The notes under the pieces were generated by a model that did no database searches, was not told the DNA's origin, and saw only the letters and a program-made list of their open reading frames with translations. Of a DNA stretch of 29,574 nt, positions 209-29,439 are shown piece after piece; within the stretch, counting starts at the first letter, position 1, and every line of letters begins with the position of its first letter. The DNA comes from Candidatus Bathyarchaeia archaeon (GTDB lineage: Archaea > Thermoproteota > Bathyarchaeia > Bathyarchaeales > Bathycorpusculaceae): positions 1 through 29,574 of the forward strand of contig JBEKXL010000025.1 of the NCBI GenBank assembly GCA_049512075.1. Reading direction: 5' to 3'. The position numbers and the translations under genes are program-made.

Positions 209-534
209 GCGCGCGCCTCGGAGTTCTCCTTCTTCCGAACTGGAACTGGGCAATGATAGTGGCAATCATAACGCCTCTGGCGTGCATCCTGAGCGTCGAG
301 GCCAACGTAATCATATCCTCGAGAGTTAATGATGTGAGGGCGGCGCAACAACTCGGAGGACTTGTCGTACTCCCTCTACTACTTTCTGTGTTCTTGGCGG
401 CATCGGGAGAGTTTATTTCAACAAGCTTGCTCACCCTGGTATTATCAGGCATATTGGTCGTCGCGGACATCACTTTGTTCTTCGTGAGAAAGGCAACGTT
501 TCAGAGAGAAGAGACACTGACAGAGTGGAAGTAA
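209..534 (+). pseudogene. C-terminal fragment of an ABC-2 type permease
   Basis: The frame reads ARLGVLLLPNWNWAMIVAIITPL...ISSRVNDVRAAQQLG...FQREE, typical of permease C-terminal helices. It is closed upstream by TAA at 148-150, and the permease-like sequence starts at the GCGCGCGC run at 209-216. Confidence 0.7.
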
Positions 535-582
535 ACTTGCATCTGGAAAATCTAATAAGAGAGCAAAACATAGGGATTTGCC

Positions 583-1200
583 GTGGAATACCATTATTAT
601 AGAGTATACTCAGTTCAACGCGAGAGGGCTTGGGAAAGACAGCAAATCACCGATGGCTCCTTAATCCGCGAGTTGCACAGCCCTTCTGAGGGAAAGATCA
701 AGGCTGAGATAGATGAAGTGGGGCCAAAGGATAGCCCGGCTAGGACCTGGAGGCGCCTAGCAAAATACTTCTGTCAGGGGATCGGTTTTTCCTTGCTTGT
801 TTCTATCTTGACCTGCGCATCGATGGATTTCGCCTCTCACACTCCCGCGTTCGTAACTGGACCGCCGCCATTCTTGGTCGTGATAATGGGATTTGCGATG
901 GTCGTACTGTTGGTTCTGATGATTGGAATTGTCAATAGCGTAATAACGGCACGATTTTGGTTTCGAGTGGAAACCTCTTTCTGGAGCATCATGCTCCAAG
1001 GAATCGCATTGTTCGTTGCACTTTGGATTGTGGACATTCCTTTCTCCTTAGCGAACTTCGCTTTTCCGGGCATTGCAACCATTCTAGTCGTTTTAGTTCT
1101 TCAAGGTTTCGCGGATGGATTTGTTTGCAAGAAAGTGGCGGAGACCTGGAGAAAAGACGTCTTTCCAACAACATCGAAAGCGCCCGCCACACTAGGATAG
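583..1200 (+). CDS. Hypothetical membrane protein (about 4 TM helices)
   Basis: 205-aa ORF with a hydrophilic N-terminus and four hydrophobic segments; start uncertain. Confidence 0.7.
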   Translation: MEYHYYRVYSVQRERAWERQQITDGSLIRELHSPSEGKIKAEIDEVGPKDSPARTWRRLAKYFCQGIGFSLLVSILTCASMDFASHTPAFVTGPPPFLVVIMGFAMVVLLVLMIGIVNSVITARFWFRVETSFWSIMLQGIALFVALWIVDIPFSLANFAFPGIATILVVLVLQGFADGFVCKKVAETWRKDVFPTTSKAPATLG

Positions 1201-1241
1201 TGAAAAAATAAAGCCACTCGAGCATTCGCTGGAATTGATCA

Positions 1242-2006
1242 CTAAGGCTTGACTCGTCTGAACGCGGCTGTTGCAATTGCGAAGGCGAAGAGACTTTCTG
1301 CTATAAGCGCTGCTATCTCGATAGGCAAAAGCGGCACGTACACCTGCAATAGCCCGGCTCTGAGCATGTCCGCAGCATAGGTCAGGGGATTGGCCAATGA
1401 TATAGCTTGAATGATTATGGGCGCTTTTTCCAGAGGGTAGTAGACTGAACTCAGAAACATCAAGGGAGTGAACAAAACGTTTAGAGTGGCATTGAATGCC
1501 TCGTTGGATTTTATGAACACGGAAATGGCCAGCGTCAGGGAACCAAAAAAGAGAGACCCCAACACCAGTGAAGCGGCAATGTATAGAACGCCCTCGATGG
1601 AAACGCTTAACCCCACAAGCAGGGGAGAGGCGATGAGAAAAACCAGAAACGCGTTTAGCATTCCCTGAAGCATAATCGAAACCAACTTGCTAAGTATGTA
1701 CTGCCACCTGCTGAACGGCCCCACGACTATCTGTGCGAACATGGCCAACCTCTTGTCAAGCCAAAGCATCGCCCCTGCCATAGAAGCAGCAAACATTATC
1801 TGCATGACCACTACGCCCGGCGCAAGAAAAAGCACGTAGCTGACCTCCCTGTTGCCGACGCTCATTGTCGGAATGACAGATGCGTAACCGAAACCGGCGA
1901 CGAAGATATAGAACAGAGGGGTTACAAGCTGGACCGCGATCATCGATTTGGTTGACCAGAGGCTGGCCTTCAAATCCCTGTACAAAAGCCTAAGAAAACT
2001 ATTCAT
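1242..2006 (-). CDS. ABC-2 type exporter permease
   Basis: Six TM helices, motifs YVLFLAPG, PLMFLSSVYYP and NPLTYAAD; overlaps the ATPase gene end. Confidence 0.93.
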   Translation of the reverse strand: MNSFLRLLYRDLKASLWSTKSMIAVQLVTPLFYIFVAGFGYASVIPTMSVGNREVSYVLFLAPGVVVMQIMFAASMAGAMLWLDKRLAMFAQIVVGPFSRWQYILSKLVSIMLQGMLNAFLVFLIASPLLVGLSVSIEGVLYIAASLVLGSLFFGSLTLAISVFIKSNEAFNATLNVLFTPLMFLSSVYYPLEKAPIIIQAISLANPLTYAADMLRAGLLQVYVPLLPIEIAALIAESLFAFAIATAAFRRVKP

Positions 2007-2958
2007 TGCGATTCCTCCCTTTCGAGTTCACCATCTGAATGAAAACGTCATCCAACGATGGCTCCTCTATCCTAAGTTCCGTTATATGCACTCCGAGAGT
2101 CGTCGTCACATCGATTATTCTGGGCAACACTGCGTTTGCATCCTCCGCAAACACCCTCAACGACTCGTCCTTCTGTTGCGAACGGACTATTTTCTGAACG
2201 CCGAGCAAACCCTGCAGCTTACGGTCTACGTCGCTGTTGTCCTCAGCGAAACGTAGATGAATCACGCTTACTCCTCCGAACTTCTGTTTGATGTTCTTTA
2301 TCGTGTCCAAGGCCAGGATTTGTCCGTGGTTAATTATGGCTATTCTGTCACAGATGTACTCCGCCTCTTCCATTATGTGTGTAGTGAAGAAGACGGTCAC
2401 ACCGTTTCTCACCTTCTCGCGCACGAAATCTAACGTCACTCTTCTAGCCTGCGGGTCCAAGCCAGTAGTGGGTTCGTCAAGAAACATGACCTCGCAATCG
2501 TGCATGAACTCTCTTGCGACTTGCAGACGTCTCCTCTGCCCAATCGAGAGTTCAGGCGGAGCTGTCTTCCTAGCCTCCTTCAGGCCAAACTTGTCCAGAA
2601 GAAGCTCGATCCTTTTCTTTCTCTCCACCTTCGGCACATTCCATAAAACTCCATACAAGTCAAGATTCCCCTCCACGCTCAAAGCGTGCTCGTAGCTCGG
2701 ATCCTGTTGCACAACGCCTATCCTAGGCCTAATCTTGCCTCCTTCAGAAACAACGTCAAGTCCGAGAACGGTGGCCTTGCCACTCGTCGGTCGCAAGAGG
2801 GTGGTCAACATCTTTATGGTCGTTGTCTTACCAGCGCCATTCGGGCCCAGAAAGCCGAAAACCTCCCCCTTTCGAACACTGAAGGAAACGTGATCAACAG
2901 CAACTACGCTACCATACCGCATCGTAAGTTCATTCGTTTCAATGGAACACTCTGACAA
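1999..2958 (-). CDS. ABC exporter ATP-binding protein (DrrA-like)
   Basis: Walker A GPNGAGKTT, signature LSIGQ, Walker B MFLDEPT, H-loop TTH, C-terminal EPSLDDVF; TTG start. Confidence 0.95.
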   Translation of the reverse strand: MSECSIETNELTMRYGSVVAVDHVSFSVRKGEVFGFLGPNGAGKTTTIKMLTTLLRPTSGKATVLGLDVVSEGGKIRPRIGVVQQDPSYEHALSVEGNLDLYGVLWNVPKVERKKRIELLLDKFGLKEARKTAPPELSIGQRRRLQVAREFMHDCEVMFLDEPTTGLDPQARRVTLDFVREKVRNGVTVFFTTHIMEEAEYICDRIAIINHGQILALDTIKNIKQKFGGVSVIHLRFAEDNSDVDRKLQGLLGVQKIVRSQQKDESLRVFAEDANAVLPRIIDVTTTLGVHITELRIEEPSLDDVFIQMVNSKGRNRNE

Positions 2959-3064
2959 TTACTTCCACCGACAAAAACAGCTATGGTCTCGGTTAAATAG
3001 TATTGTGGGAAAAAGTGACCACTAACCTGAAAGAACAGACAAGAGGATTCGCGCGCGTTTTGGA

Positions 3065-3841: not shown

Positions 3842-4513
3842 ATGAAACTTGCGGTGCTTTGCGACTTTGATGGAACAATCACGACAGTTGATACGGCGGA
3901 GTGGGTGCTCGCCAAATATGCCCAAGGAGACTGGCGGCTGTTTGACAGGCAGTTCGAGGACGATGAAATCTCGCTTGAACAATGCTTGAACAGAGAGTTT
4001 TCTCTTGTGATGACATCAGAAAAACAAATACTGGAAGAACTGAAGCACGTGGTCATCTTTCGACCGAACTTCAAGAAGCTGGCAGAGTATTGCAGGGAAA
4101 GACATATTCCTCTTATGATAGTCAGTGCGGGAATTGATTTCGTCATAGAGCACTTTTTGAAACTCAACAATTGCATGGACCTAGTCAAGGTCTACGCTGC
4201 GAAGACCACCTTCAACGCCAACGGCATCAGGTTCACCTTTCCGCCACTGCTTGACACAACATCTGACAACTTGAAACACGACATGGTCAGACATTACCAG
4301 AGCCAAGGCATGAAAGTAATCTACGTAGGAGATGGATCGGCGGACTATGCAGCAGTTAAAGATGCGGACTATTCATTCGTGATTAAAGGTTCTAAACTGG
4401 CGAAACTGTGCAGAAGCCACGGGATACCATGCAGAAACATGACAGACTTTCAAGACATAATCGATGCCATTAGCAAAATCCTGTCGCATAGCGCGCTGGG
4501 CGACGCTCAATAA
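3842..4513 (+). CDS. HAD-IB phosphatase (MtnX-like)
   Basis: Motif I DFDGTIT, motif II VSAG, motif IV GDGSAD. Confidence 0.9.
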   Translation: MKLAVLCDFDGTITTVDTAEWVLAKYAQGDWRLFDRQFEDDEISLEQCLNREFSLVMTSEKQILEELKHVVIFRPNFKKLAEYCRERHIPLMIVSAGIDFVIEHFLKLNNCMDLVKVYAAKTTFNANGIRFTFPPLLDTTSDNLKHDMVRHYQSQGMKVIYVGDGSADYAAVKDADYSFVIKGSKLAKLCRSHGIPCRNMTDFQDIIDAISKILSHSALGDAQ

Positions 4514-5303
4514 GGAAAACAAGAAACGGAAAATGCAGAGAAACCGATTTGTTTTAGACCGCGTCGATGGCCAAAAGCCAATCAATTGTACCCGAACAAT
4601 GTCTGTGACTCAGTCTTCGATTTGGTGATTTGTCTTTCCTTCTTGTTCTTTGCATCCTAACCATTTCCTAGGCATCTTGCACTATGACAATTTGCTTTGT
4701 ATTTATATGTGAATAATATACCATGGCTCATCAGATACCGCTGCTTGCCTCTTTTTCTTTCTAGACATATTCTTCATTTCCAATCCTCGTATAGAAACAG
4801 TGCAAATCAGACATATCTAGGATTTCCAAATAATATACCGACGACCACTTATTCTATATAGAAAAAGCCGCTTCGCGACCCGCGCGCACCGAGGAATCTA
4901 AGCGAACACCCATCAGCTCCTTCATCTTCTGGGTCGAACTCTTGACGACAAAACTCTCAACTTTCATCACGTCCACCCTCAAAACCTTCATAGCCCACCC
5001 TGAAGAGAGGTATCTTCACCTACGCATTAGCGAAAAGACTGGCCACTGGTTGGTCACATTTGCACAGAACACCTAACTCGAGTGACCGCTCCTCTGATCG
5101 TTTGAGGTGGCAAAAAGTGAAACATGAATATATGCACCACACAGCGAGAAAGTCCAACCTTCCCATTTCTTTAATGAAGGCTGTGAGGGCCGTGCAAGAC
5201 GCTGCTCGCGTGCTCAGAGTCATGGCTTTCCTACACTCAGCCAATGATCTTCCATCCATCCTTAGACTCTATGGAATAGATAACTCGTCAGAAACCGCTT
5301 GAA

Positions 5304-5987: not shown

Positions 5988-6033
5988 AAGTGCAGATGGC
6001 GCACTCTGTGCGCGCGCGCAATCTAGCGAGCTG

Positions 6034-6350: not shown

Positions 6351-6527
6351 ATGCGCAAAATCATTCAGATGCCTCACAAGTTCTGTGATTACACCTGCTA
6401 TGTCAACGACTTGGAAGATGCACTTGCCTCGAAGGGAACTAGTTACATTGACTTGTTGCTCTCTGTCGTGGGAGGCATGGCAAGCTTTGCCTACTTGAAG
6501 TTCAAACGGGCGAATGGTGCGCGCTAA
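6351..6527 (+). pseudogene. 58-aa ORF, probably the N-terminal fragment of a larger protein (possibly BtrH_N-like)
   Basis: Hand translation MRKIIQMPHKFCDYTCYVNDLEDALASKGTSYIDLLLSVVGGMASFAYLKFKRANGAR*; SD-like GAGGTG upstream; ends GCG CGC TAA at a CG run. The family call is from recall only. Confidence 0.55.
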
Positions 6528-7069: not shown

Positions 7070-7208
7070 TGAGTCGCGAAGCTTTTGAGCTTTTCGAAAC
7101 CGCGCTTTGCGGGAAGCTCTCGTTTTTCCGCCGTGATCCGCACCTTTCTCTCGGTAGACCACTTCAATAGGGACGTACTCAACTCATTTTGATGCACTCA
7201 GGAACCGG

Positions 7209-7230
7209 ATTTAGGGACAAGTCAGCGCGC
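7209..7230 (+). repeat. Solo terminus matching the MITE-like element right end
   Basis: ATTTAGGGACAAGTCAGCGCGC versus ATTTAGGAACAAGCATGCGCGC (25742-25763): 18/22 identical. Confidence 0.45.
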
Positions 7231-7849: not shown

Positions 7850-8069
7850 TTCACGAGGCCTCAAACGCAAGGTTTGTTTGAAACCTGAATAAAAGCCTTT
7901 TCTTTCAACAGAAACCTGGAATTCAGCTTATAGCGCGCTCATTTTGGATGTTCCGCACCAAGACCATGCATCCGTTCTTCGCGTTCTGAAATTCTCTCGA
8001 CTGGCCTTTACATGTTCGTTCTCAACTATGACTTTCACTATTAGACTCAGCAGTTTGAATCATGCGTTT

Positions 8070-8492
8070 CTAGGGTCTAGGATGTCTTCTCCCCGCCATA
8101 ATGACGCCGTACACGGCTGCAGCTATGATTGTCACGCCGACGAATACGAAGAACAACGCTGTCAACATCTGCGCGCCATAGCCTCCAGCTATTAACAAGT
8201 AGAGAAAAGCACCGAATATTATGAGCACTAATCCGCCGATCAGCGGCCCCAGGAACGTGTACTCATGCTTTTCGGTTTTCTCCCATTTCTCTTTCCTCTC
8301 GCTTTTTTCAGCCTGTCGCCTCTGGCCCCTCAGTTCCCTTCTTCGCTCTCTCCATTCCCTACGCCTGGCCCTCAGTTCATCCCTCCAATCCACCGTGGAC
8401 TCCGCTCTCAGAGATGCGCCACATCTTGGGCAGAAAACCATTGTCTCATCCACCTCTGAACCACACTTCGGACAATTAGGCAAAGCTTTCAC
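8070..8492 (-). CDS. Zinc-ribbon membrane protein
   Basis: CPKCG...FCPRCG, a charged linker and two C-terminal TM helices; start may be TTG at 8483. Confidence 0.85.
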   Translation of the reverse strand: MKALPNCPKCGSEVDETMVFCPRCGASLRAESTVDWRDELRARRREWRERRRELRGQRRQAEKSERKEKWEKTEKHEYTFLGPLIGGLVLIIFGAFLYLLIAGGYGAQMLTALFFVFVGVTIIAAAVYGVIMAGRRHPRP

Positions 8493-9152: not shown

Positions 9153-10097
9153 ATGAGAGCAAACAACCGGGCAAAACACATCGCGCGATGTCTTGAACTG
9201 GCCATTTTACTGGAAGTCAGCGCCCACAAACCCGGAAACGTGAGTGTGATAAACAATTTCGAGAAGACTCTCTACGGCCATTTTCTTGCCTCTGCTGTCG
9301 CTGCTGCTTCGTCCTTTGAAACTGCTGCCCAACTGGGAATCCTTGTTTCTCAAGGGAAAATTGATGTGGCCGATGTTGGAGTAGGAAGGTTAATAAAAAG
9401 ATGCATAGCGGACATCAACGCCTGGCAACATGGTGGCAACACGCTTCTAGGCGTGGTCATACTGCTTTCCCCGATTGCAGTAGCTGCCGGAATGACTTCA
9501 ACAACGGGATATCTCAACCTTCAGCACTTGAGGAAAAACCTGAAGCTCATCACAGAATCAACCACGCCAAGAGACGCTGTCAACATGTACGCGGCAATAG
9601 AAATCGCCAACCCCAGCGGACTCGGAAAAGCCCCAGCCCTAGACATCAACGACCCAGACTCAGTAGGCAGAATACTCGAAGACAAAATATCCCTGTACAA
9701 GATCTTCAAAATAGCAGAAAAATACGACACCATCTGTTCCGAGTGGGTAAACAACTACCCAATAACCTTCGACCTCGCCTACCCATCTCTGACCAAACGA
9801 CTACAAAACAAGGACGATCCAAATAGCGCCACAGTTCAAACCTTCTTGGAGGTTCTAGCAAAAGTTCCAGACACGTTCATAGCCAGGAAGACGGGCATCG
9901 AAAAATCACGTGAGATTTCACTAAGAGCCAGACATGTATTAAACCTCGGCGGAATTGAAACTTCCGTCGGCAAAAAAAGCCTAAGCGAGTTCGACCAAGA
10001 ACTCAGAAAATCTGGCAATCTCTTGAACCCGGGGACAACGGCAGACATACTCGCAGCAGCTTTGGCGTTGTGTGTTCTCAACGGATACAGACCATAG
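9153..10097 (+). CDS. citG: CitG family (triphosphoribosyl-dephospho-CoA synthase-like) protein
   Basis: LEVSAHKPGNV, GNTLLG, DTFIARK and LNPGTTAD motifs. Confidence 0.85.
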   Translation: MRANNRAKHIARCLELAILLEVSAHKPGNVSVINNFEKTLYGHFLASAVAAASSFETAAQLGILVSQGKIDVADVGVGRLIKRCIADINAWQHGGNTLLGVVILLSPIAVAAGMTSTTGYLNLQHLRKNLKLITESTTPRDAVNMYAAIEIANPSGLGKAPALDINDPDSVGRILEDKISLYKIFKIAEKYDTICSEWVNNYPITFDLAYPSLTKRLQNKDDPNSATVQTFLEVLAKVPDTFIARKTGIEKSREISLRARHVLNLGGIETSVGKKSLSEFDQELRKSGNLLNPGTTADILAAALALCVLNGYRP

Positions 10098-10722: not shown

Positions 10723-11285
10723 TTTCCTTCCTCATCTTTGCTAACAATTCTGGCATCTTGCACTTTCTTACCCAACGTTAAGCGGTTTTGTAGTTCTACT
10801 ACTTCTGTGCTGTCTTTCGCGTTTGCATAGTCTTCCAGTCTCTCATGGTTTATCTCAAGAAACGTGTGTCCCCACTTGAAAACGGACAGCAACTCGTCTG
10901 CTTGATCTCTGAACCCGACAATGTAAAGCGCCGCTGCAAGAGCCTCCGCTGTTGTGAGTTTTGTGAGCTTGCCAAAATTAACTGGGTTGCCCGCAACCAG
11001 TATCGGCAGACAGCGGGATGTCCCTCTCACGTGTTTCAACAAGACTTTTTCAGCGTGTTCCCAGCTGCAATCCAGGCCTACGAGTCCAAACTCTTCAGCG
11101 CGCTTCCTGTCAGCAGGAGAAAAAGCAGTCTCGGAGAACGGATTAAGCACAACCGCCCTCTTTGGCAGAAACCGTAACTGAACCACCTGTCGAACCAGCC
11201 CAAATCGTTTGAGCTTCAGAGCCGTGCACTTCTTTGGATCACATTGTCTCGCGTTGTAGACAACGATTCTAATTTGCCTTTGCAC
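10719..11285 (-). CDS. tsr3: 16S rRNA aminocarboxypropyltransferase Tsr3 (DUF367)
   Basis: QCDPKKCT, LDCSW, LVAGNPVNFG, EALAAAL and FKWGHTF. Confidence 0.93.
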   Translation of the reverse strand: MQRQIRIVVYNARQCDPKKCTALKLKRFGLVRQVVQLRFLPKRAVVLNPFSETAFSPADRKRAEEFGLVGLDCSWEHAEKVLLKHVRGTSRCLPILVAGNPVNFGKLTKLTTAEALAAALYIVGFRDQADELLSVFKWGHTFLEINHERLEDYANAKDSTEVVELQNRLTLGKKVQDARIVSKDEEGK

Positions 11286-14909: not shown

Positions 14910-15184
14910 CCCTTTTCACCTCCCGCCTGCCTTTTGCCATGAAGTGCTTATAGCCAAAACGCATTTAAATCAAACGCGCGGCAGCACGACCAAGGAGAAG
15001 TATCTGAATGAACGAGATCGTTTCTCCACTTGTTTTCAATTGAACGTCGGAAGTAGACGGTTTCTTTCTCGGACTTAGGCCTGGATAAGCCACCAGCGCG
15101 AGTGAGAACACCGGCGAAATAGTTTAAATGTCTGTGTTTTGTTAATCCTAGAAATCGGAGTCCATAGTTCAGGGTGTTTATGAC

Positions 15185-19575: not shown

Positions 19576-19782
19576 CGAATCTTCCTCTTTCATCCTCGTT
19601 GCTTCCAAGGTTCAAATACATATTAAAGAATTGTGAACCGTAGATACATAGTCAGAATACAGATGAACCTCCCGGGCGAAGCGACTTCTTTTCCTGAGTC
19701 ACGGCGCGCCTGTCCGGCTTCTGACTCCCAAAGCCTCGATGTCTAAAAGTGTGACACTGTGCTCCTAAAAAACGTGCAAGAG

Positions 19783-22231: not shown

Positions 22232-22940
22232 GGCATTCATCTTTCCTGAAGTTTGCACGGATTAATATTAAACGTTTTGTGGTCGGAGCGTGCTGGAGTG
22301 GCTGTGGCGCCAATTTCTTCGTTTTGGATATGAAAAACGGCATGCTGAGGTTCGCGATTCTCTGAGCCGCAAGGGACAGGAATATTCCGCCAACGACATC
22401 TGTCGGATAGTGTGCGCCCAGAAAGATTCTGCTCAAAGAAACCAGGGCAATGGCTGTTACTGCTAGTGCTTCTTTGGTTCTGCTCTTTCTCGACAGAATT
22501 ACGAAGGCTCCCGTGGCTCTGGAAACATGGCCAGACGGATATGAAGACGAAGAGATGAAGTCCTCATCATAAACTCTGAGGCCCGAACAGTTCGGTCTCG
22601 GACGGGCGACAGCTATTTTCATTGAATAGGTAAGCGCCGTTGTTATGACCAAGAAAACCGCAAGCTCGATTGCGGAACCGAGTTGTTTTCTTAAACCAAA
22701 GTATGCGATGAGCAAGTAGATTGAGGTAAGAATGACCCAAACGTAAAAGTCACCCAAATACGTCAGAACTTGAAAGGCTTGCAGCCCTATGGTCTGCTGA
22801 GCGAGACTCTGCAGATTAAACATGATCTTGCATTCTATGCCATTCAGCGGCAAGAGGACAACAAGCATGCCGATCAGTAGTGCCAACATCAGGTAGATTG
22901 CCGTTGAGACATAAGGGTCTCTTAGACGGAATCTGTCCAT
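22083..22940 (-). CDS. PAP2 family membrane phosphatase
   Basis: K...RPRP, SYPSGH and SRIFLGAHYPTDV; the 3' end runs into pepF, so the real end is uncertain. Confidence 0.85.
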   Translation of the reverse strand: MDRFRLRDPYVSTAIYLMLALLIGMLVVLLPLNGIECKIMFNLQSLAQQTIGLQAFQVLTYLGDFYVWVILTSIYLLIAYFGLRKQLGSAIELAVFLVITTALTYSMKIAVARPRPNCSGLRVYDEDFISSSSYPSGHVSRATGAFVILSRKSRTKEALAVTAIALVSLSRIFLGAHYPTDVVGGIFLSLAAQRIANLSMPFFISKTKKLAPQPLQHAPTTKRLILIRANFRKDECHDKNGYRVGLVRNIPKQYGSFSPESHWQPWQNGRALCREVSGKNRKPIS

Positions 22941-22959
22941 TTGACTGTCCCCGCGCGCC

Positions 22960-23400
22960 CTATTGGGTTCTACTACGGCATGCCTTGCAAATACCATAAA
23001 TGTCTAGGCGTTGCCCGGTCCGCGTGAATTCTGCTGTAGCGGCAACTCTTGCCACCATTTCTCGCGCGGCAGGATCGTCCATATCCGTAATGTTGCCACA
23101 TCGCAAGCAAACCAGGTTTATGTGAGGTTCCACATAAGAATCAAACCTTGCCTGACTCTGCGGGAAGTCCAGTTCCTGGACTAGGCCGAGTTCCGTCAGG
23201 ATTTGAAGCGTCTTGTACACTGTCGCAAGGCTGACTGTTGGTTGAAGTTCTTTAACTTCGCTGTAGATTCTCTGCGCACTTGGATGATCTCGGCTCTTAA
23301 GCGCTAGTCGACAAATCGCTATCCTCTGCGGAGTAGCCTTGTATCCTTTTTTGCGAAGAGCTTCAATTATCGAGGTGTCTGATTTTTGAGAGCGACTCAT
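22960..23400 (-). CDS. Fur/PerR family transcriptional regulator
   Basis: TPQR, HPSA, SLATVYKTL, H..CLRC and CKAC; divergent from catalase. Confidence 0.92.
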   Translation of the reverse strand: MSRSQKSDTSIIEALRKKGYKATPQRIAICRLALKSRDHPSAQRIYSEVKELQPTVSLATVYKTLQILTELGLVQELDFPQSQARFDSYVEPHINLVCLRCGNITDMDDPAAREMVARVAATAEFTRTGQRLDIYGICKACRSRTQ

Positions 23401-23405
23401 CGCTT

Positions 23406-23430
23406 TTATTAGATAATAATAAGTCTTAAA
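23406..23430. promoter_or_regulatory. Fur/Per-box-like operator in the divergent promoter region
   Basis: GATAATAATAAGTCTTAAA (23412-23430) matches 13/19 of the Fur box GATAATGATAATCATTATC and overlaps the palindrome TTATTA-N5-TAATAA (23406-23422). Confidence 0.5.
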
Positions 23431-23495
23431 TAAACCTTTGAGCCTTTCAAATGCTCAGGCATTATGAAACAACAAGGAAGAACGGTGTGCATGTT

Positions 23496-24944
23496 ATGAA
23501 GGATAAACATCTCACGACGAATCAGGGTGTTCCTGTCTCCGACAATCAGAATTCACTCACCGTCGGCCAACGCGGACCTGTGCTGCTGCAGGATGTACAT
23601 TTGATTGAGAAGCTTGCACACTTCGACCGGGAGCGCATACCTGAGCGCGTAGTACACGCTAAAGGTGCTGGTGCGCATGGCTACTTCCAAGTGTACAAGA
23701 GCATGGAGAAGTATACTTGCGCGAAATTCCTTCAAGATCCAAAGAAGAAGACGCCTGTCTTCGTCCGTTTCTCTACCGTGGTCGGTGCACGAGGATCTGC
23801 CGATACGGCTCGCGATCCCAGAGGTTTTGCAGTGAAGTTCTACACCGAAGACGGAAACTACGATCTGGTTGGAAACAATCTTCCCGTCTTCTTCATCCGT
23901 GATGCCATCAAATTCCCGGACATGGTACACGCCTTCAAGCCCGCCCCTGACACAAACATCCCCACAAGCTCATCGGCAAACAGCCGTTTCTGGGACTTCA
24001 TATCGCTGGCTCCAGAATCTACCCACATGATAACTTGGCTCTTCTCAGACAGGGGAACGGTCAAGAGCTACAGGAAGATGGAAGGTTTCGGCGTCAACAC
24101 CTACAAATGGGTGAACGCCAAAGGCAAGGCCGTCTATGTCAAGTATCACTGGAAACCGAAGGCAGGAGTGGACACTATTGACCGCCATGAGGCCACGCGT
24201 CTAGCTGGCGAAGATCCCGACATCGCCACCCGCGACTTGTACGAAACGATTGCTTCAGGAAAGACTGTGGAATATGAATTGAACGTTCAGATTATGGAGA
24301 TTGCTAACGAGTCCAAGCAGAGCTTCGACCCGCTTGATGCCACGAAGACCTGGCCTGAGGACAAGTTCCCGTTGATGCCGGTGGGCAAGATGGTGCTGAA
24401 CCGTAATCCAGAAAACTACTTTGCAGAAGTAGAGGAGGCTGCTTTCTGCCCCGCCTCTATCGTTCCAGGAATCGAGTTCTCCGCCGACAAGCTCCTGCAG
24501 GGCAGGATCTTCTCATACGCAGACACGCAACGGCATCGACTGGGCGCCAATTATCTGCAACTCCCAGTCAACAGACCGAAGACTGATGTCAACAATAACC
24601 AGCGGGACGGAGCCATGCAGTACGCGCCCTACGGTGGAGGAACAGTCAACTACGAACCCAACACTCTCGCGGGCGGAATGCCAAGCGAAGCACCGGCCAC
24701 CGCCACGGCTCACGAGCATCTCGAAGGGGACATGGCGCGTCAGAAAATCAGTTTAACCAACGACTTTGAACAGGCAGGCGAACGCTACCGTTCGCTGGGT
24801 AAAATGGATCAGGACCATCTGGTTGACAACATCGCTGATTCGCTGGGAAAGGCAGACAAGCCGATTCAACAACTCATGATCAAGAACCTTACTGAAGCCG
24901 ACCCTGAGCTTGGCAAACGAGTGGCAAAAGGACTGAAACTCTAG
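23496..24944 (+). CDS. katA: Monofunctional heme catalase (small subunit)
   Basis: FDRERIPERVVHAKG, RDPRGFAVKFYT and LQGRIFSYADTQRHRLG (proximal Tyr); start set at MKDKH. Confidence 0.96.
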   Translation: MKDKHLTTNQGVPVSDNQNSLTVGQRGPVLLQDVHLIEKLAHFDRERIPERVVHAKGAGAHGYFQVYKSMEKYTCAKFLQDPKKKTPVFVRFSTVVGARGSADTARDPRGFAVKFYTEDGNYDLVGNNLPVFFIRDAIKFPDMVHAFKPAPDTNIPTSSSANSRFWDFISLAPESTHMITWLFSDRGTVKSYRKMEGFGVNTYKWVNAKGKAVYVKYHWKPKAGVDTIDRHEATRLAGEDPDIATRDLYETIASGKTVEYELNVQIMEIANESKQSFDPLDATKTWPEDKFPLMPVGKMVLNRNPENYFAEVEEAAFCPASIVPGIEFSADKLLQGRIFSYADTQRHRLGANYLQLPVNRPKTDVNNNQRDGAMQYAPYGGGTVNYEPNTLAGGMPSEAPATATAHEHLEGDMARQKISLTNDFEQAGERYRSLGKMDQDHLVDNIADSLGKADKPIQQLMIKNLTEADPELGKRVAKGLKL

Positions 24945-24999
24945 CATCTAAAAGAGCATAACGCGAGTTTACGACTACGCCCGAGTGAGCCTACCACCC

Positions 25000-25530
25000 T
25001 TAGCTTCCCACTTTTTCTGGTTTTGCCATTCTCTTGATGGATTCGATGAAGTCATCGGGGTTCTTCGGAGTGATGAGGAAGTTGCCCTGCTTGGTTTTTA
25101 TTAGCACGCCGTCTCTGAAGTTGGTTATTACCACAAAAGTCTTGCCGATGCTCGGAAAATAGTAATACCCGCCATAACCTGTTGCCCCGAAAAGCCTGAT
25201 GCCAAATGGTATAAGCGTTCTTTCGACAGATTCTATCGTTTCCAAGGAAACCCTTTTTGTGCCGCCGATGAACACGGATGCCCTCATGATCAATTCACGC
25301 TGTGTTAAAGTGTACTCTGTTCTATCCATGGAAACCACTATGGAGATGATTATTATTTCTACCGCAACCACGACAACTAAGCCCACGATGGCTCCGACTT
25401 TTTGCGTCTGCACATACAGATAGGTAATCAATGCGCCCAGAGCTGCCAGTAGTACAGCCGTCGCAATGTATAACCATGCCAGCGGCCCCGAAACCTCAGG
25501 CTTGTTAACAGCGCTCATTTCAACCATCAA
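25000..25530 (-). CDS. Membrane protein with a bacterial PH-like domain
   Basis: Two N-terminal TM helices, then RLFG..GYGG and LITPKNPDDF. Confidence 0.8.
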   Translation of the reverse strand: MMVEMSAVNKPEVSGPLAWLYIATAVLLAALGALITYLYVQTQKVGAIVGLVVVVAVEIIIISIVVSMDRTEYTLTQRELIMRASVFIGGTKRVSLETIESVERTLIPFGIRLFGATGYGGYYYFPSIGKTFVVITNFRDGVLIKTKQGNFLITPKNPDDFIESIKRMAKPEKVGS

Positions 25531-25551
25531 AGATCAAGTCATGCTTAATTA

Positions 25552-25763
25552 GCGCGCATGCGTGTTCCTAAAATGGTTAAAAATGGTATTTATTCTTTTT
25601 AGGGCTTTGGAGGCAGTTTTGAGGCGCACATCTGTCTTTGACCTTCTTGCACTGCCCGTCTCAACACAGCCAAGACCCACTATCAAGCAGTCCAAATCAA
25701 ACGCAGATAGGCAAAAGAAGAATAAAACCCATTTTACACCAATTTAGGAACAAGCATGCGCGC
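25552..25763. mobile_element. MITE-like element (212 bp) with ~46-bp imperfect TIRs and GCGCGC termini
   Basis: Left end GCGCGCATGCGTGTTCCTAAAATGGTTAAAAATGGTATTTATTCTT versus reverse-complemented right end GCGCGCATGCTTGTTCCTAAATTGGTGTAAAATGGGTTTTATTCTT (6 mismatches); homolog at 28674. Confidence 0.8.
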
Positions 25764-25811
25764 CCTGTTTGTGTTCGAATAAATCTTATCCTTTTAACGC
25801 GCGCTTCGGTG

Positions 25812-27644
25812 TCATTGCATTTTTGTTTCTGTCTTCTCTGTATATGGGGTGTTTTGTTTGTCTTGCACATTCCTTATGAATGTTATTGCCTCTCGAAATC
25901 CATGAGGAAGATAGACGAGTTTTATGCCCGACCCGTGAAGGTTGAACCCGGTTCTTGCCTGAAGTGCAAACGTCGCTATTCCTGCTATGCATGGAATCAA
26001 AGCGATGAGAAGTGCAAGTGCTTGAATTGATACGAGTTGAGGAATTGCTTTTATGATTGAATCCGCCGCTGTTTGAATGGCTGAGATGAACGATGGCTTG
26101 AGGATGGCTCGCCACATAGGTTCCAACAGGAGAATGAATGCGGGTGAGAATCCGGCTAGCAGAATTTTCCAAGGGTATCGCCTTGTGTGTTCGATGTCTG
26201 CTATGCTTTTGTAGGGGATTTCTGTGATTTTTCTCGAGATGCGTCCATGCCTGACGAAGAGTCGTCTGTCTGTAGCGACGATTCCCCAGTTTCCTTTCGA
26301 CCATGTTTTCAAAACGTGTTCAGGCTCGGCTAAGGTTGAAATGGTTTCGTGTGGTACGTGTGTTAGGCCGCTTTCTTTTACCATTTCTTCAGTTATCGCG
26401 TCATCTAGGTCTCTTATGACTTTGTAGGATGTCATGTTTCGTGCCTTTTCTTTTGCGTTTTCAGACAGTCTGTTCCACAGGTCGCGATCATCCGCGAGAT
26501 TTCGTATTGCCTTCGACGCGCCTGCGGCGTCTTGTGGTCCTTTAGTGTGTATGCCTTCTCGACCGTTTCGAACCAGCCACGACTGACCTCCCACTCCAGA
26601 TGTTACAACAGGTACACCCATGTACATGAATTCTAGCTGGGTCAAACCAAGTGCTTCTTCCTGGCTCATGAGGATGTTGGCAAATGAAGACTTGATGAGC
26701 AGTATTTTCTCTCTTTCGTCGACTTCACCAAGACAAATTACGTTGGACATTTGACTCGCCTTTTCCTTGACCCTTTCAGCATAGCGTGAATCTCCTCGCC
26801 CTGCTATTATAAAGAGAATGTCGGATCTATCCTTGACCATATCAGCAACTTTTAAAACAATCATAGGATTCTTTCTCTCTTCAAGACTTCCGAGATAGGA
26901 CACTAGCTTGACGTTTTTTGGGATATGATGCTGTTTAGCGAAGTCTCCTGTATCTGTTGCTGCAAACCGCAGAAATAATTCTTCATTTACTCCACTTGGG
27001 AAGAGAAAACATTTCTTTGGATCGGCACCCATCTTGACTTTTGCCTCCTTCTCAAGCGGTGTGACGACAAGCACGAGATTCGCTGTCCTTAGAATCTGAG
27101 ACAATGATAATCTGTTCCAAGCCATTCTAAATGTTCCTTCCACAAGAGAGTAATGTTTCGCTGAAGGCTCCTGAAAGTGGGACATGTGACAGAAAACGAT
27201 GGGATCCGCATAGCCTCCTAAATCCTTCATATACCGTCTCCAAGCAACAAATTTGGCGACTTCCTCCGGCCCATTCCATAGGGTGCTGTGGGTTACAAGC
27301 ACGTTCAGCTTGAATTCATCTACAATGTTTTCCAGAACATGAACAAAATCTCGAAAGCTGATACGACGACGGGGCCATCTCACAATGTAGCTAGCCACGC
27401 GAATAACTGGAATCCCTAGCTCTTGGTCGTCTACGAAAATGTAGCCTTTCCCCTTTGTCAAATTGTCCGAGGATATGACCTCTACTCCTTCGTGAAAAAC
27501 GCTGGTGATCAAATAGGCTTCGTGACCTAAAGAAATGAAGTCACGGACCATTCGCTGCGCAACCAGTTCTTGACCCTTGCTAGTGCTCGTTTGATACATG
27601 AGAACTCCTATTCTTTTATGCATCTCTACCCCGTCCTTTGACAT
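25812..27644 (-). CDS. GT4 glycosyltransferase with a C-terminal membrane/PH-like extension
   Basis: GT-B motifs GSLEERKN, EALGLTQLE (EX7E) and GVPVVTS; tail of about 180 aa with 2 TM helices; start may be 27623. Confidence 0.88.
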   Translation of the reverse strand: MSKDGVEMHKRIGVLMYQTSTSKGQELVAQRMVRDFISLGHEAYLITSVFHEGVEVISSDNLTKGKGYIFVDDQELGIPVIRVASYIVRWPRRRISFRDFVHVLENIVDEFKLNVLVTHSTLWNGPEEVAKFVAWRRYMKDLGGYADPIVFCHMSHFQEPSAKHYSLVEGTFRMAWNRLSLSQILRTANLVLVVTPLEKEAKVKMGADPKKCFLFPSGVNEELFLRFAATDTGDFAKQHHIPKNVKLVSYLGSLEERKNPMIVLKVADMVKDRSDILFIIAGRGDSRYAERVKEKASQMSNVICLGEVDEREKILLIKSSFANILMSQEEALGLTQLEFMYMGVPVVTSGVGGQSWLVRNGREGIHTKGPQDAAGASKAIRNLADDRDLWNRLSENAKEKARNMTSYKVIRDLDDAITEEMVKESGLTHVPHETISTLAEPEHVLKTWSKGNWGIVATDRRLFVRHGRISRKITEIPYKSIADIEHTRRYPWKILLAGFSPAFILLLEPMWRAILKPSFISAIQTAADSIIKAIPQLVSIQALALLIALIPCIAGIATFALQARTGFNLHGSGIKLVYLPHGFREAITFIRNVQDKQNTPYTEKTETKMQ

Positions 27645-28407
27645 TCATCCATATCATAGGAAAGTCAGATTCGAACAAGAATTGATTCTCAAGAAGTCTA
27701 CTTAGAAACGGAGAAACGTCTTCAAACTTCACGAAGTAATCGCAAGCTAAACTTTGCACGTAATATTCCCCATGGACTACTCCTATACCTACATCTGCCA
27801 TTGCAAATGCCGGGTTGTCTGCTTCCGAATCTCCCATGTAGAGAATTCCTTTCTCCAGCTTCAGTTCTTTCAACATCTCCTTGAGGGCTACGCCCTTGTC
27901 AATAGACATTGGGTATACATCAAGGAAAGGCTGACCTTCATACTTAACCAGCTTCAAGCCTAGCGACTTACAGTAATCCACAACCACGTACACTTCTTTC
28001 ATCGCGGCCAGTGGGTCTTTGGACTGACGCCAGTCCAAACAGAAGGCAATGGGACGGTGACTCATGTCAAGTTTTTCCTCAATTTCAACTCCAGAAAATC
28101 TCATGTGCGATTTGGCATACTCAATAGCGACAGAAACGTTTCTCAATTTGTGCTCATAACCGTTTCTCTTCTGAGTGATGTCGCCTATCTTCCTCTCGAG
28201 TCCGCTCACTGCCGACCATGCGCAGGCGAAAGGCGTTCTGGGTTCAACAAATGAAAGATCCTTAGTGGTGACAACAACTATTGGAACGTGTTTGATTATT
28301 TTCTGAAGCACTACTTGTGTTTCCACAGGGACTCTTGACTCATTTCTGGAAGAATTCAACGGGCTTATTGTTCCATCATAGTCCAAAACCAAGCAATTAA
28401 CAGTCAT
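27616..28407 (-). CDS. HAD-IIB phosphatase (trehalose/sucrose-phosphatase-like)
   Basis: LDYDGTI, DKGVAL and YMGDSEAD; overlaps the GT4 gene start; start set at MTVNC. Confidence 0.85.
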   Translation of the reverse strand: MTVNCLVLDYDGTISPLNSSRNESRVPVETQVVLQKIIKHVPIVVVTTKDLSFVEPRTPFACAWSAVSGLERKIGDITQKRNGYEHKLRNVSVAIEYAKSHMRFSGVEIEEKLDMSHRPIAFCLDWRQSKDPLAAMKEVYVVVDYCKSLGLKLVKYEGQPFLDVYPMSIDKGVALKEMLKELKLEKGILYMGDSEADNPAFAMADVGIGVVHGEYYVQSLACDYFVKFEDVSPFLSRLLENQFLFESDFPMIWMNVKGRGRDA

Positions 28408-28673
28408 CCTGAAGCTTCTGACTCTGCGTCTGCTGTCTAGGCATAGTGAGCTTTCATCATTAAAATCTGAAGAGAAAGGACGTGTTGGATCCTTCAATGG
28501 GCTTTCCCAAACCTAGGTTATTTCTGGAGCATTGGCGATATATCTTTTTGCTAAGTATCTGCATTCGTTGTCATCCGCCTGACTTTGCCAAAATCCACTT
28601 GCTTCATGGACTACGAGCGCGCGCGCTGCTATTTGCTCAATATCCAAGAAATGAAACGCAAACGAGACTCTAA

Positions 28674-28950
28674 GCGCGCGCGTCCCGAAATTGGTCTAAA
28701 ATGGTCATAATTCCTTTTTTCGGGTTTAGGGACAGTTTTGAGGCACATACCTGTTTTTAGCCCTCCTCTGTGCCTTGACGTCCCAGAAGGGCTAGATGCA
28801 GCTTCAACAGTTTATGGGAAAACTCCAATTCCATACGGATTTGATGGAACCCCGTGATTTGCCATCTTTCAGCACGAGCAACATTCACCCATCAAACAAG
28901 CCCAAATCAAGCTCCAATAGACAAAAGAAGAATAAAAACCGTTTTTAATG
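28674..28950 (+). mobile_element. Diverged second copy of the MITE-like element
   Basis: Starts GCGCGCGCGTCCCGAAATTGGTCTAAAATGG and shares CAGTTTTGAGGC, CCAAATCAA and CAAAAGAAGAATAAAA with 25552-25763; longer interior and eroded right tip. Confidence 0.7.
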
Positions 28951-29053
28951 GAGTTAAACGAGACTAAAATTAATCAGTTGATTAAAAAAACCGAAAAAAG
29001 TCAAAGTCAAATAAACAAAGATGTTAAAAGCATAAAATACCAATGCTAGAAAA

Positions 29054-29341
29054 ATGGACTCTGTAAGTATTGTCTTGGATTTCGCTAATATTATTAATCT
29101 AATTGCTGTCCTTCTCTTAATGAGGGCTATACTAATAGATAGGAAGGTCTTGAAGGGCTTCAGCGTTAGTGGTTCTTTTTTGACTTTTATAGCAATTTTT
29201 GGTTTCGAGATAGTGTATGTTCTTTTGGGAAATCCCATAAGCTTTGCATTAGGATTGGTCAATCTTGTCTTTTGGCTTATGGCTTTTTTATTTGCTTTTC
29301 GAAAGTGGATTTATGAGCGGCACAAAGGACAGAAATCTTAA
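29054..29341 (+). CDS. Small 3-TM membrane protein
   Basis: 95-aa hydrophobic ORF that is AT-rich relative to the window. Confidence 0.75.
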   Translation: MDSVSIVLDFANIINLIAVLLLMRAILIDRKVLKGFSVSGSFLTFIAIFGFEIVYVLLGNPISFALGLVNLVFWLMAFLFAFRKWIYERHKGQKS

Positions 29342-29439
29342 ATCTGCACAGCAACAGAAGACAAACTGGGGTTTAAAAAAGTGCGCGCGAGGCGGAGGGC
29401 AGCAGCATATTAGTTAACGTTTAAGGTTTAGGCGATGCC

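Follow-up and report, generated by a model that had tools for sequence, protein, structure and literature searches.

The GCGCGC-type runs that stand between genes in this peat Bathyarchaeia genome (G000; 2,725,246 bases, i.e. 2.73 Mb, 99.8%-complete) are confirmed to be real and extremely over-represented genome-wide, and between close genomes they are located at indel and deletion junctions. They look like scars of DNA cutting and rejoining, produced at least partly via an IS family with GCGCGC-bearing ends. The more specific reading, that the runs are junction scars of an IS5/IS1182-like element family and not signals read by the cell, stands in our opinion an even chance. The window, i.e. 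the whole stretch of 29,574 nucleotides that was analysed, was considered together with the complete G000 sequence, with a sister genome (G002, 94%-identical to G000, of which 1.47 Mb was compared) and with a phyletic survey of 201 genomes of the same order. In G000 a rough gene caller mapped 2536 genes, with a coding share of 78.8%, and the placement of the runs in the window was checked against ORFs and Pfam. The original prediction had seen in GCGCGC the target, footprint or crossover core of an element or recombinase that shuffles single-gene units, with cyanobacterial HIP1 among its analogies and a 3′-end signal among its alternatives; its tie to a mobile element stands, while recombinase shuffling, the HIP1 analogy and the 3′-end signal do not. 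Nor is there support for readings of the HIP1-like, methylase, integron-like or recombinase-cassette type.

The 21 alternating CG runs (at least 6 nt) that had been picked out by eye in the window all lie exactly at their listed coordinates. GCGCGC is observed there 24 times versus 6.33 ± 3.02 in 100 dinucleotide-preserving shuffles, none of which reaches 24, and GCGCGCGC 6 times versus 0.35 (0/100 shuffles reach 6). Against the Markov background that had been proposed for the whole genome, GCGCGC is the top hexamer of G000 by maximal-order z (z 17.4; 1873 observed versus 1257 expected, and 3.8x the zero-order expectation), and GCGCGCGC is the top octamer both by count and by observed/expected ratio (646 versus 27.8, 23x). 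Run lengths (669 runs of 6 nt, 195 of 7, 284 of 8, 186 of 9, 105 of 10, 3 of 11, 2 of 12 and 1 of 13) bulge at 8-10 nt and are cut off at 10 nt, which only 6 runs exceed, unlike the five other alternating dinucleotide types examined in G000, the lengths of which decay smoothly. The phase is biased too, with 250 GCGCGCGC versus 34 CGCGCGCG among the 8-mers and 90 (GC)5 versus 15 (CG)5 among the 10-mers. The word thus delimited in G000 measures 8-10 nt, a longer consensus being absent.

The intergenic enrichment that had been expected is strong genome-wide: runs of at least 8 nt are 18-28x denser outside genes (28x for 8-mers, 18x for 9-mers and 28x for 10-mers; 0.9x for 4-mers), and 494/581 of them are wholly non-coding according to the rough gene caller. 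In the window, none of the nine runs of at least 7 nt lies inside a confident gene, run 22952 being counted as spacer because the part of the long ORF in which it lies is an N-terminal extension, ahead of the PAP2 domain. The runs that had been assigned to CDS bodies are indeed found there and are ordinary occurrences: GCGCGC at 8171..8176 in the CDS of a zinc-ribbon protein and CGCGCG at 9182..9187 in that of CitG (one substitution each versus the sister genome), GCGCGC at 11098..11103 in a Tsr3-like (Ribo_biogen_C) CDS (two substitutions) and CGCGCG at 23063..23068 in the Fur CDS (conserved in the sister). GCGCGC at 4491..4496, which occupies the last codons of a HAD hydrolase gene as had been stated, is probably of the same ordinary kind. 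Proximity to stop codons proved to be only a mild association (82/366 within 30 nt of a stop versus 33/360 within 30 nt of a start). Among the individual distances, those to the Nudix (7 nt), Fur (1 nt) and GT4 (7 nt) stops are correct, but the supposed overlap with a DUF996-like gene is not, this gene ending at 7304, 74 nt from run 7225-7230; all that this run overlaps is the stop codon of an ORF of 96 aa.

Such a distribution bears on the idea that the run is a functional motif under selection or biased repair, be it a HIP1-like methylase palindrome, a protein-binding or Z-DNA supercoil element, or a 3′-end signal. The extreme over-representation of a GC-rich 8-nt palindrome, as with HIP1, the mild excess right after stops and the presence in G000 of N4/N6-type methylases are in its favour. 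However, the runs are excluded from genes, the opposite of HIP1, and they have no match in Rfam. Their similar density per kb in tandem (0.91-0.96), convergent (0.99) and divergent (0.70) spacers speaks against a 3′-end signal, and the distribution of the enzymes against a methyltransferase site: no C5 methylase was found in the 99.8%-complete G000, and the occurrence of the best N4/N6 methylase does not follow that of the runs, this enzyme not being found in G001-G004, G018 and G021 and being present in run-poor G006 and G027. Furthermore, the run is identical in the sister genome at 10/21 mappable sites, versus 365/672 for control words (p 0.66); the runs are conserved no better than control words and, hence, there is no selection on them. 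A functional motif is therefore very improbable.

In the same comparison, indels affect 6/21 run sites versus 6/672 controls (OR 44), and twelve sites show the clean gain or loss of a run. Synteny breakpoints, which had been predicted to fall on runs, do so: 26/110 homology breakpoints with G002 lie within 3 bp of runs, versus 0.9% of random positions (27x), and the signal holds under an intergenic-only control.

The tie to a mobile element is that GCGCGC is the TIR tip of an IS5/IS1182-like IS and of its MITEs, and that footprints and occupied-versus-solo sites exist. The TIR is ~24 nt long, with GCGCGC as its outermost six bases and TA usually just before; the tip being palindromic, an identical (GC)3 is found at both ends of every copy. 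The census of G000 yields 135 TIR ends, and 41 elements, 131-1331 bp long, have a pair of them; the 1.1-kb copies encode a transposase (DDE_Tnp_1 and DUF772), and MITEs of the family measure 130-500 bp. The GCGCGC tip belongs to the element, perfect tips being found at IS ends in run-poor G020 and G032 (6 octamers each), while a 54%-identical IS in run-poor G029 has, by eye, the same degenerate, non-palindromic tip inverted at both ends. An A at position -1 is found at 68% of 107 living tips, 68% of 250 solo (GC)4 and 71% of 90 solo (GC)5, versus a background of 26%, the two sides of a run being independent in this respect; the frequency is 40-43% at (CG)-phase 6- and 8-mers and 39% at non-TIR GCGCGC 6-mers.

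At two sites (C14:8000 and C6:8338) a solo (GC)5 in G000 corresponds to a full MITE in G002; the CG letters at each of them add up to 12 nt in the occupied state and to 10 nt in the solo one. Opposite the MITE at C12:23737, G002 has a footprint that retains both tips, the same degenerate right tip included, and TA-(GC)n-TA stands opposite a single TA at R9:80803 and R2:724. In the mechanism that we propose, a copy would disappear when the transposase excises it or when the host joins its two tips, and the tips would be rejoined with at least 2 nt of overlap, so that only (GC)3, (GC)4 or (GC)5 could result; this restriction would account for the G-first phase, the 8-10 nt bulge, the 10-nt cut-off and the A/TA flanks. 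Element insertion, adjacent deletion and loss would be tolerated only in spacers and dispensable genes, and scars would therefore accumulate in intergenic DNA and, as marks of gene loss, at deletion junctions, until point mutation erodes them. On these grounds we infer an element origin for most scars.

Occupied and solo sites could also be read in the opposite direction, with runs that pre-exist and act as preferred insertion target, with a 2-bp duplication, and as fragile site for IS/MITEs, the breakpoints reflecting the fragility of Z-DNA-prone (CG)n. That an occupied site has 12 nt of CG and a solo one 10 nt is what such a duplication predicts, and the tips of 4 + 8 nt, instead of 6 + 6, at the occupied C6:8338 site equally fit off-centre insertion into an existing run, which counts against the scar reading; moreover, 10% of TIR tips are longer, namely 8-mers, and breakpoints cluster at runs. 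Yet (GC)4, the commonest run, predicts tips of 5 + 5, none of which is seen, and the tip is element-borne in run-poor genomes, with the inverted non-palindromic repeat of G029 as a further difficulty. Neither the origin of the runs nor their de novo appearance at deletion junctions inside genes is explained. A pre-existing target is improbable.

Within the window, support for the scar reading comes from a MITE, an orphan end and a run joined to a truncated MITE end. The complete 212-bp MITE of the IS5-like family (25552..25763) has (GC)3 tips that are runs 25552-25557 and 25758-25763, TA only on its left flank and 98%-identical copies elsewhere, and metagenome contigs diverge exactly at its edges (25550/25551 and 25763). 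The orphan right end of an IS5-like element (7207..7230, minus strand), which matches the TIR consensus, consists of inner TIR, GCGCGC (run 7225-7230, its tip) and TA. At 28674..28682, a GCGCGCGCG run is directly followed by an inner TIR, the usual 7 nt in between being absent, and metagenome contigs show at 28682, as loose ends, the canonical MITE end in other copies; the adjoining MITE of the same family (28683..28945) is truncated at both ends and 80-87% identical to copies of 303-304 bp.

The remaining runs of the window are solo or short. By comparison with the sister genome, the solo (GC)4 run at 209..216 is the scar of a deletion between colinear flanks: opposite it, G002 has ~1.8 kb (C6:19580-21363) that encode an ABC ATPase and, N-terminal part only, an ABC-2 permease. 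Other solo runs are CGCGCGCG at 3050..3057 (ABC ATPase/Nudix spacer), which is without alignable sister-genome sequence, CGCGCGC at 4881..4887 in the 790-bp gene-free stretch 4514-5303, (GC)5 at 6010..6019, in the spacer that separates the nitroreductase stop from the start of the PhoU-domain gene, CGCGCGC at 25798..25804, 35 nt away from the MITE and close to the stop of the GT4 glycosyltransferase gene, (GC)5 at 28617..28626, in the spacer past a trehalose-phosphatase-like gene, and GCGCGCG at 29383..29389, upstream of the last gene. The GCGCGC 6-mer at 7933..7938 has (GC)4 at the equivalent sister-genome site and is therefore a run under erosion or build-up by point change; another (6519..6524) lies in a spacer upstream of the stop of a flavodoxin-like gene, and a third (19704..19709) adjoins a repeat-rich rearranged spacer and is substituted, i.e. 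absent, in the sister. CGCGCG at 14975..14980, in the spacer ahead of the alanyl-tRNA synthetase gene, and CGCGCGC at 22952..22958, in the Fur/PAP2 interval, are conserved in the sister.

Run 209 is one of ~20 solo runs opposite which the other genome has ordinary genes (0.1-1.8 kb) and no element. The genes deleted and sealed in this way include the interior of an XPD-type helicase gene, an AIR-synthase-like gene and an ABC ATPase/permease pair, and the ancestral ends carried no run; the scar model consequently requires three successive steps: insertion, adjacent deletion and loss. Run-free ancestral ends also speak for a host activity, independent of any IS, that seals breaks by adding or selecting (GC)4-5 filler at DNA-end joining, the IS5-like family sharing, having captured or exploiting the word. 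So do an indel that consists of the 8 bp GCGCGCGC alone, free of any duplication, the strings of 58-86-bp fragments in gap #7 with a run between each, and an abundant repeat that is cut by runs at many different internal positions.

The phyletic data cut both ways. At close range they support the scar reading: all 5 members of the run-rich genus have close homologues of the transposase, as does G021, likewise run-rich (64 TIR ends), and TIR ends number 0-2 in five run-poor genomes. Nevertheless, the IS5-like family is neither necessary nor sufficient for runs across the 201 genomes: octamers and TIR ends number 785/0 in G160, 442/1 in G175, 341/1 in G169, 251/0 in G174, 227/1 in G018 and 587/6 in G209, with the reverse case in G178 (44/32), all at a GC content of 41-52%, and repeats abut runs at 0/178 sampled arms of G018, G160, G175 and G169 together. 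Since many run-rich genomes are without the IS family, an IS-independent source of runs can still be envisaged. Host sealing, however, leaves unexplained the G-first phase, the TA duplications and a frequency of A at -1 that is exactly that of living IS tips. No candidate enzyme was found; Ku, present in 45/201 genomes, mostly of one run-poor genus, and not found in G160, G209, G175 and G169, does not track the trait, and we know of no polymerase or ligase with such in vivo specificity. Host sealing as the source is possible, but on the doubtful side.

A site-specific recombinase with GCGCGCGC as crossover core, moving cassettes between runs as in integrons, was central to the original prediction, and some features of the gaps agree with it. 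In gaps #7 and #10 a segment bounded by runs on both sides is present in one genome and absent from the other, where a single run is left; a 270-bp element has runs on its borders at 5 loci, and G000 has 17 tyrosine-recombinase matches above the Pfam cut-off. But only 66/1046 run-bounded segments of G000 recur anywhere, mostly as MITEs, and most polymorphic segments are without a run at their ends in the retaining genome (17/20 and 4/5). The positions of the runs vary within one repeat family and, together with the sealing of run-free deletions, this means that conservative site-specific recombination cannot be the producer; the shuffling of single-gene units is so improbable that it deserves scarcely any credence.

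Several observations run against the scar reading as well. A repeated flank is absent at 541/581 runs of at least 8 nt in G000, and TA precedes only 27-30% of solo runs versus 51% of living tips. Some run indels, for example that at R1:17910, have no TA duplication, and no plain empty TA site was found opposite a MITE in G002, where MITE flanks hardly ever map (25/40 G000 elements are without a flank match).

Among known systems, the excision footprints of the eukaryotic Tc1/mariner, P and hAT elements resemble the runs in that remnants of both ends and the duplicated target (here TA) are left at the donor site, and in that imprecise events accompany flanking deletions. The difference lies in the palindromic tip, owing to which all scars here read alike and their shared word is the commonest octamer of the genome; our literature search retrieved no report of excision-footprint scars from an archaeon or from IS5-type elements. 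REP/BIME sequences with their RAYTs are likewise palindromic, intergenic and present in hundreds of copies, but REPs are imperfect palindromes of 20-40 nt, as opposed to a word of 8-10 nt with no longer consensus, and the Y1 transposases of G000 belong to a separate IS200/IS605-type element. Integron attC cassettes share a recurring site that delimits gene-sized units and presence/absence polymorphism; the runs have no attC-like structure, the cassettes do not recur and most variable segments are without an end site, so that the suggested likeness to cassette ends is lost.

With IS5/IS1182 elements the family shares DDE_Tnp_1 and DUF772, ~24-nt TIRs, a short A/T-rich flank (TA), many non-autonomous derivatives and location in spacers, and it differs in the perfect (GC)3 palindrome of its tip and in proteins that score below the NCBIfam cut-offs of both the IS1182 and the IS5 models. 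For PIF/Harbinger, the eukaryotic relatives of IS5, the available text of PMC2836001 gives precise excision in 109/110 events, in contrast to the imprecise excision proposed here, and this counts against the scar reading. Finally, HIP1 and the alternate cyanobacterial HIPs are, like the runs, a dispersed 8-nt GC-rich palindrome, by far the most over-represented octamer, with flanks that are random beyond 1-2 nt. The analogy that had been drawn breaks down in that the runs keep out of genes, show no more conservation than control words and have no linked methylase. HIP1 is the opposite: in the available text of PMC4390886 and PMC5861425 it is enriched inside genes, conserved there and accompanied by cognate methylases; the runs are also sparser, at about 240 per Mb versus the 1000-2000 per Mb that the same portions of these sources give for HIPs.

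The 21 alternating CG runs of at least 6 nt that the original prediction had picked out in the window (209, 3050, 4491, 4881, 6010, 6519, 7225, 7933, 8171, 9182, 11098, 14975, 19704, 22952, 23063, 25552, 25758, 25798, 28617, 28674 and 29383) were all recovered where it had placed them. Their distribution over genes, as judged from open reading frames (ORFs) and Pfam matches, also proved to be as described, with four 6-mers within CDS bodies (8171, 9182, 11098 and 23063), one in the last codons of a HAD gene (4491) and all nine runs of at least 7 nt outside confident genes. Run 7225, which had been said to overlap a DUF996-like gene, actually lies 74 nt from the DUF996 stop codon and is the tip of a transposon end. 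GCGCGC occurs 24 times in the window (6.3 expected) and the octamer GCGCGCGC six times (0.35 expected), and none of 100 dinucleotide-preserving shuffles reached 24 or 6, respectively. No tRNA or Rfam family was found in the window.

In the whole genome (G000; 2.73 Mb, 47.5% GC, 99.8% complete, the window being contig 25 and the relatives being Bathyarchaeia MAGs throughout), GCGCGC ranks first among hexamers by maximal-order Markov z (17.4) and GCGCGCGC is the most frequent octamer, with 646 copies, i.e. 23 times the zero-order expectation. Run lengths from 6 to 13 nt are represented by 669, 195, 284, 186, 105, 3, 2 and 1 runs, respectively, and this bulge and the cliff after 10 nt are absent from other alternating dinucleotides. 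The G-first phase prevails (GCGCGCGC 250 versus CGCGCGCG 34; (GC)5 90 versus (CG)5 15). A is favoured before the runs and T after them, the flanks being random past ±2, and a search for a longer REP/MITE consensus around solo runs (those not at the tip of a recognised element) gave nothing past A/T at ±1 and ±2; the flanks are unique at 541 of the 581 runs of at least 8 nt. By rough gene calling (2536 genes, 78.8% coding), 494 of these 581 runs are non-coding, and the anticipated intergenic enrichment holds genome-wide, runs of 8–10 nt being 18–28 times denser outside genes and 4-nt runs being unbiased. The proximity to stop codons is reduced to a mild excess, a stop being at most 30 nt away for 82 of 366 runs and a start for 33 of 360. 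Tandem, convergent and divergent spacers have a similar run load and, since every spacer type carries runs, the 3′-end signal offered as an alternative is not borne out; a terminator or promoter role was rejected on the same grounds.

The nature of many of the 6-nt runs emerged from clustering of the sequence leaving each run: they are the outermost bases of TIRs of about 24 nt, of the form GCGCGC-N6-GTYSC-KAAAT preceded by (TA), which autonomous copies have in common with miniature ones at unrelated loci and which recur, in the same sub-families, in G021 and many other genomes of the order. In G000, 135 ends were counted, along with 41 paired elements 131–1331 bp long. The 1.1-kb copies L082 and L083 encode PF01609 (DDE_Tnp_1; 85.8 and 62.5 bits, cut-off 23), which has eight matches in the genome, along with PF05598 (DUF772); as the NCBIfam scores stay below the equivalog cut-offs (IS1182, 143 versus 270 bits; IS5_4, 104 versus 140), the element is IS5/IS1182-like without an assignable family. 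The window contains a complete 212-bp MITE (25552–25763), the two tips of which are runs 25552 and 25758, an orphan TIR end of the same IS5-like family (7207–7230), and a MITE (28683–28945) that has lost 7 nt of its end and is fused to run 28674. Thus, the link to a mobile element drawn by the original prediction stands insofar as GCGCGC is the TIR tip of an IS and its MITEs, and is not supported where it invoked a gene-shuffling recombinase. The tip is borne by the element and is not a duplicated target, because a related IS in the run-poor G029 has the same degenerate, non-palindromic tip, inverted, at both ends (read by eye), and because the IS ends of G020 and G032, genomes with only six octamers each, bear perfect GCGCGC tips. 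TA stands on both sides of 12 of the 41 paired elements and before 51% of 107 tips. Metagenome contigs from four sequencing runs, considered over window 9600–29574, break off at repeats; no contig bridges the MITE.

Other repeats are also present in the window. Positions 1–127 form the terminus of an element present in 14 copies (92–100% identity, many at contig ends), which explains why the contig starts here; Y1 (IS200/IS605-type) transposase genes adjoin other copies (e.g. C3:207195-207554 beside C3:207562-207687), and the element is unrelated to the CG runs. A family of 130–270 bp is found at about 8739–8997 and at 19782–19990, with 44 matches genome-wide and a core of about 39 copies, and contains a pair of direct repeats of about 19 nt. 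In five of the copies, (GC)4 runs delimit a 270-bp unit; runs cut other copies at varied positions. It may be a MITE or, perhaps, an RNA gene.

Comparison with the sister genome G002 (94% identical; 1.47 Mb sampled, with breakpoint statistics from its first 387 kb) agrees with the expectation that synteny breakpoints fall on runs: 26 of 110 internal breakpoints are no more than 3 bp away from a run of at least 6 nt, against 0.9% of random positions, 16 of 110 are equally close to one of at least 8 nt, against 0.4%, and 11 of 24 colinear gaps have a run at the boundary. Runs of at least 8 nt are mappable in G002 far less often than intergenic controls (21 of 140 versus 672 of 1500, p 8e-13); 15% of them are conserved and colinear versus 43% of intergenic-only controls, and homology stops exactly at the site in 21% versus 8%. 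Once mappable, they sit on an indel in 6 of 21 cases versus 6 of 672 for the controls (OR 44, p 3e-7). G002 runs could be mapped onto G000 in 49 of 301 testable cases (22 identical, 10 of the same length and changed, 5 with small changes, 7 clean absences, 5 with a long extra segment) and G000 runs onto G002 in 74 of 572 (19, 29, 1, 5 and 20, respectively), the two directions overlapping because conserved sites are seen from both sides.

The long cases include a complete MITE opposite a solo (GC)5 at C14:8000 and C6:8338 (C, R and L handles denoting contigs, sites or sequence pieces), a chain of 58–86-bp pieces with a run between each at C33:10339, and a mapping artefact at C12:44141; the others are mostly unique DNA without a run at the ends. 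The MITE at C12:23737 of G000 lies opposite a two-tip footprint in G002, which has kept the same degenerate right tip. In total, the 123 mapped run observations (both directions, overlapping) comprise two MITE-versus-solo sites and one two-tip footprint, and no plain empty site opposite a living MITE emerged when MITE flanks were mapped anew on the 1.47 Mb sampled from G002. TA is duplicated around the run at 2 of 12 clean indels (R9:80803 and R2:724); others have no duplication (R1:17910) or one of 3 bp. At G002 C2:81735-82038, four to five segments of 58–86 bp, with a CG run between each, stand opposite one (GC)5 of G000, the first segment belonging to a repeat family of about 70 nt, members of which lie against runs at six loci of G000 as well. 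Opposite window 25202, the G002 orthologue of the bPH-domain gene (window 25000–25530) is split by an insertion that starts exactly with a GCGCGCGC run (L001 17391-17398), the inserted DNA having no G000 match. Three G000 insertions of 3–6 kb relative to G002 (C12:45909-51931, C30:13482-19122 and C18:31915-34891) are framed by direct repeats of 10–12 bp and lack CG runs; these are ordinary integrated elements, from which it is clear that not every indel involves runs.

In 14 of the 19 cases in which a G000 run faces a G002 segment, G002 has a stop-to-stop ORF, 100 aa or longer, that runs across a junction or covers the entire segment, a count that takes in two MITE sites and the artefact and in which some short ORFs may be spurious. 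According to Pfam, the DNA replaced in G000 comprises the interior of an XPD-type helicase gene, the flanks of which are kept in both genomes, an AIR-synthase-family gene (360 aa), a PNP/UDP phosphorylase and a class-I SAM methyltransferase, and, opposite window run 209, an ABC ATPase gene together with a portion of an ABC-2 permease gene. As these are ordinary genes, many solo runs would be scars of gene-destroying deletions, and the helicase case is unambiguous. The whole-gene sites and the C14:8000 MITE site could not be polarised with outgroups of about 82% identity, which are too rearranged.

The following route from tip to scar is favoured. Owing to the palindromic tip, both element ends carry (GC)3 in the same reading, and two tips joined with an overlap of at least 2 nt could give only (GC)3, (GC)4 or (GC)5, from which the phase bias and the 10-nt cliff would follow. 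Selection would restrict surviving scars to spacers and dispensable genes, and point mutation would then wear them down, a possible example being run 7933, a 6-mer in the window and an 8-mer in G002. Solo runs equal TIR tips in phase, length limit and frequency of A at −1, which is found at 68% of 107 living tips, 68% of solo (GC)4 and 71% of solo (GC)5, independently on each side, against a background of 26% and about 40% at C-first runs and plain 6-mers; TA precedes 27–30% of solo runs versus 51% of tips. Furthermore, each of the five genomes of the run-rich genus has close homologues of the transposase, as does G021, likewise run-rich, with 64 TIR ends and the same run spectrum. In five run-poor genomes, 0–2 ends were counted.

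The main problem for an origin of the runs from this IS is the wider survey, in which, among 201 genomes of the order with a completeness of 80% or more (MAGs, searched with one TIR pattern), the number of GCGCGCGC copies is only loosely related to that of TIR ends: 785 and 0 in G160, 587 and 6 in G209, 442 and 1 in G175, 341 and 1 in G169, 251 and 0 in G174, 227 and 1 in G018, and 44 and 32 in G178. Footprints are, therefore, not confined to genomes with the IS family, G160, G175, G174 and G018 being run-rich with 0–1 TIR ends. The sampled run-rich genomes span 41–52% GC, the runs of G209 have the same phase bias and spacer location, and no repeated element abuts any of 178 run arms in samples from G018, G160, G175 and G169. 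These MAGs may have lost repeats, and a low-copy cut-and-paste element could leave many scars. A generator of runs independent of the IS is nevertheless a serious rival, favoured by the run-rich genomes without the TIR family. Deletion scars, if they derived from the IS, would require three successive events. Among the sites compared with G002, an occupied one with tips of 4 and 8 nt suits insertion into an existing run. Also counting against an origin by IS excision is the precise excision of PIF/Harbinger relatives described in PMC2836001.

In its boldest form, which is improbable, the rival would be a host-encoded, order-wide break healing, by which any two ends are joined via a self-complementary (GC)4–5 linker that leaves a constant scar at deletions, stray-fragment insertions and transposon donor sites, the IS5-like family having adopted the linker as its tip. 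Ku/NHEJ was considered as the host factor and rejected, Ku being present in G000 yet having no association with run-richness. The Ku homologue itself (G000:C16:6054-6590; PF02735, 140 bits) is unusual among archaea; Ku is found in 45 of the 201 genomes, 24 of which belong to one genus (24 of 33 genomes). Long runs of 13, 18 and 20 nt occur in samples (L142-L156, L207-L210) of G018, G021 and G175, respectively, and the G175 runs are without the A/T flank (6%); CG runs may thus stem from more than one kind of source within the order.

Transposon footprints that shape genomes have so far been mainly a eukaryote phenomenon. If solo runs are indeed scars of the IS5/IS1182-like family, the commonest octamer of a genome would be the by-product of the palindromic tip of one transposon family, each solo run would mark and date an insertion, loss or deletion in the past, and uncultured Bathyarchaeia would offer both a cheap readout of gene loss and spacer turnover and a clear prokaryotic case of a genome shaped in this manner. 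If runs arise without the element, they would point to an archaeal end-joining chemistry with a fixed filler, which would be far more surprising. In the literature searched, no paper was found on Bathyarchaeia MITEs or archaeal IS excision footprints, nor on GCGCGCGC as an iterated palindrome, although the supplementary tables of HIP papers might list other palindromes.

As to known systems, the analogies of the original prediction fared poorly. The integron-like comparison, and with it a recombinase shuffling single genes, loses ground since cassettes bounded by the site do not recur, only 66 of 1046 run-bounded segments having another full-length copy and most of these being MITEs; a cassette-shuffling recombinase was likewise discarded, as one repeat family is cut by runs at many positions and most variable segments have no end runs. 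PF00589 tyrosine recombinases have 22 matches in G000, 17 of them over the Pfam cut-off, which is many for a 2.7-Mb archaeal genome. A methyltransferase site gained no support, no C5 methylase (PF00145) having been found in G000 and the best of the N4/N6 methylases present (C53) not tracking run-rich genomes. Whichever origin applies, the runs caution against taking hyper-abundant palindromes for motifs of regulation or methylation before their conservation has been tested. G000 does have the trait of a hyper-abundant, GC-rich palindromic octamer, its top octamer (23-fold), as in HIP1. However, HIP1, as portrayed in PMC4390886 and PMC5861425, shows enrichment and conservation inside genes, along with cognate methylases, whereas the G000 runs are neither gene-enriched, those of 8–10 nt being 18–28 times rarer per kb in coding DNA, nor conserved above controls (identical in G002, if mappable, in 10 of 21 versus 365 of 672 cases, p 0.66). 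The CG runs are best filed with IS/MITE ends and excision footprints.
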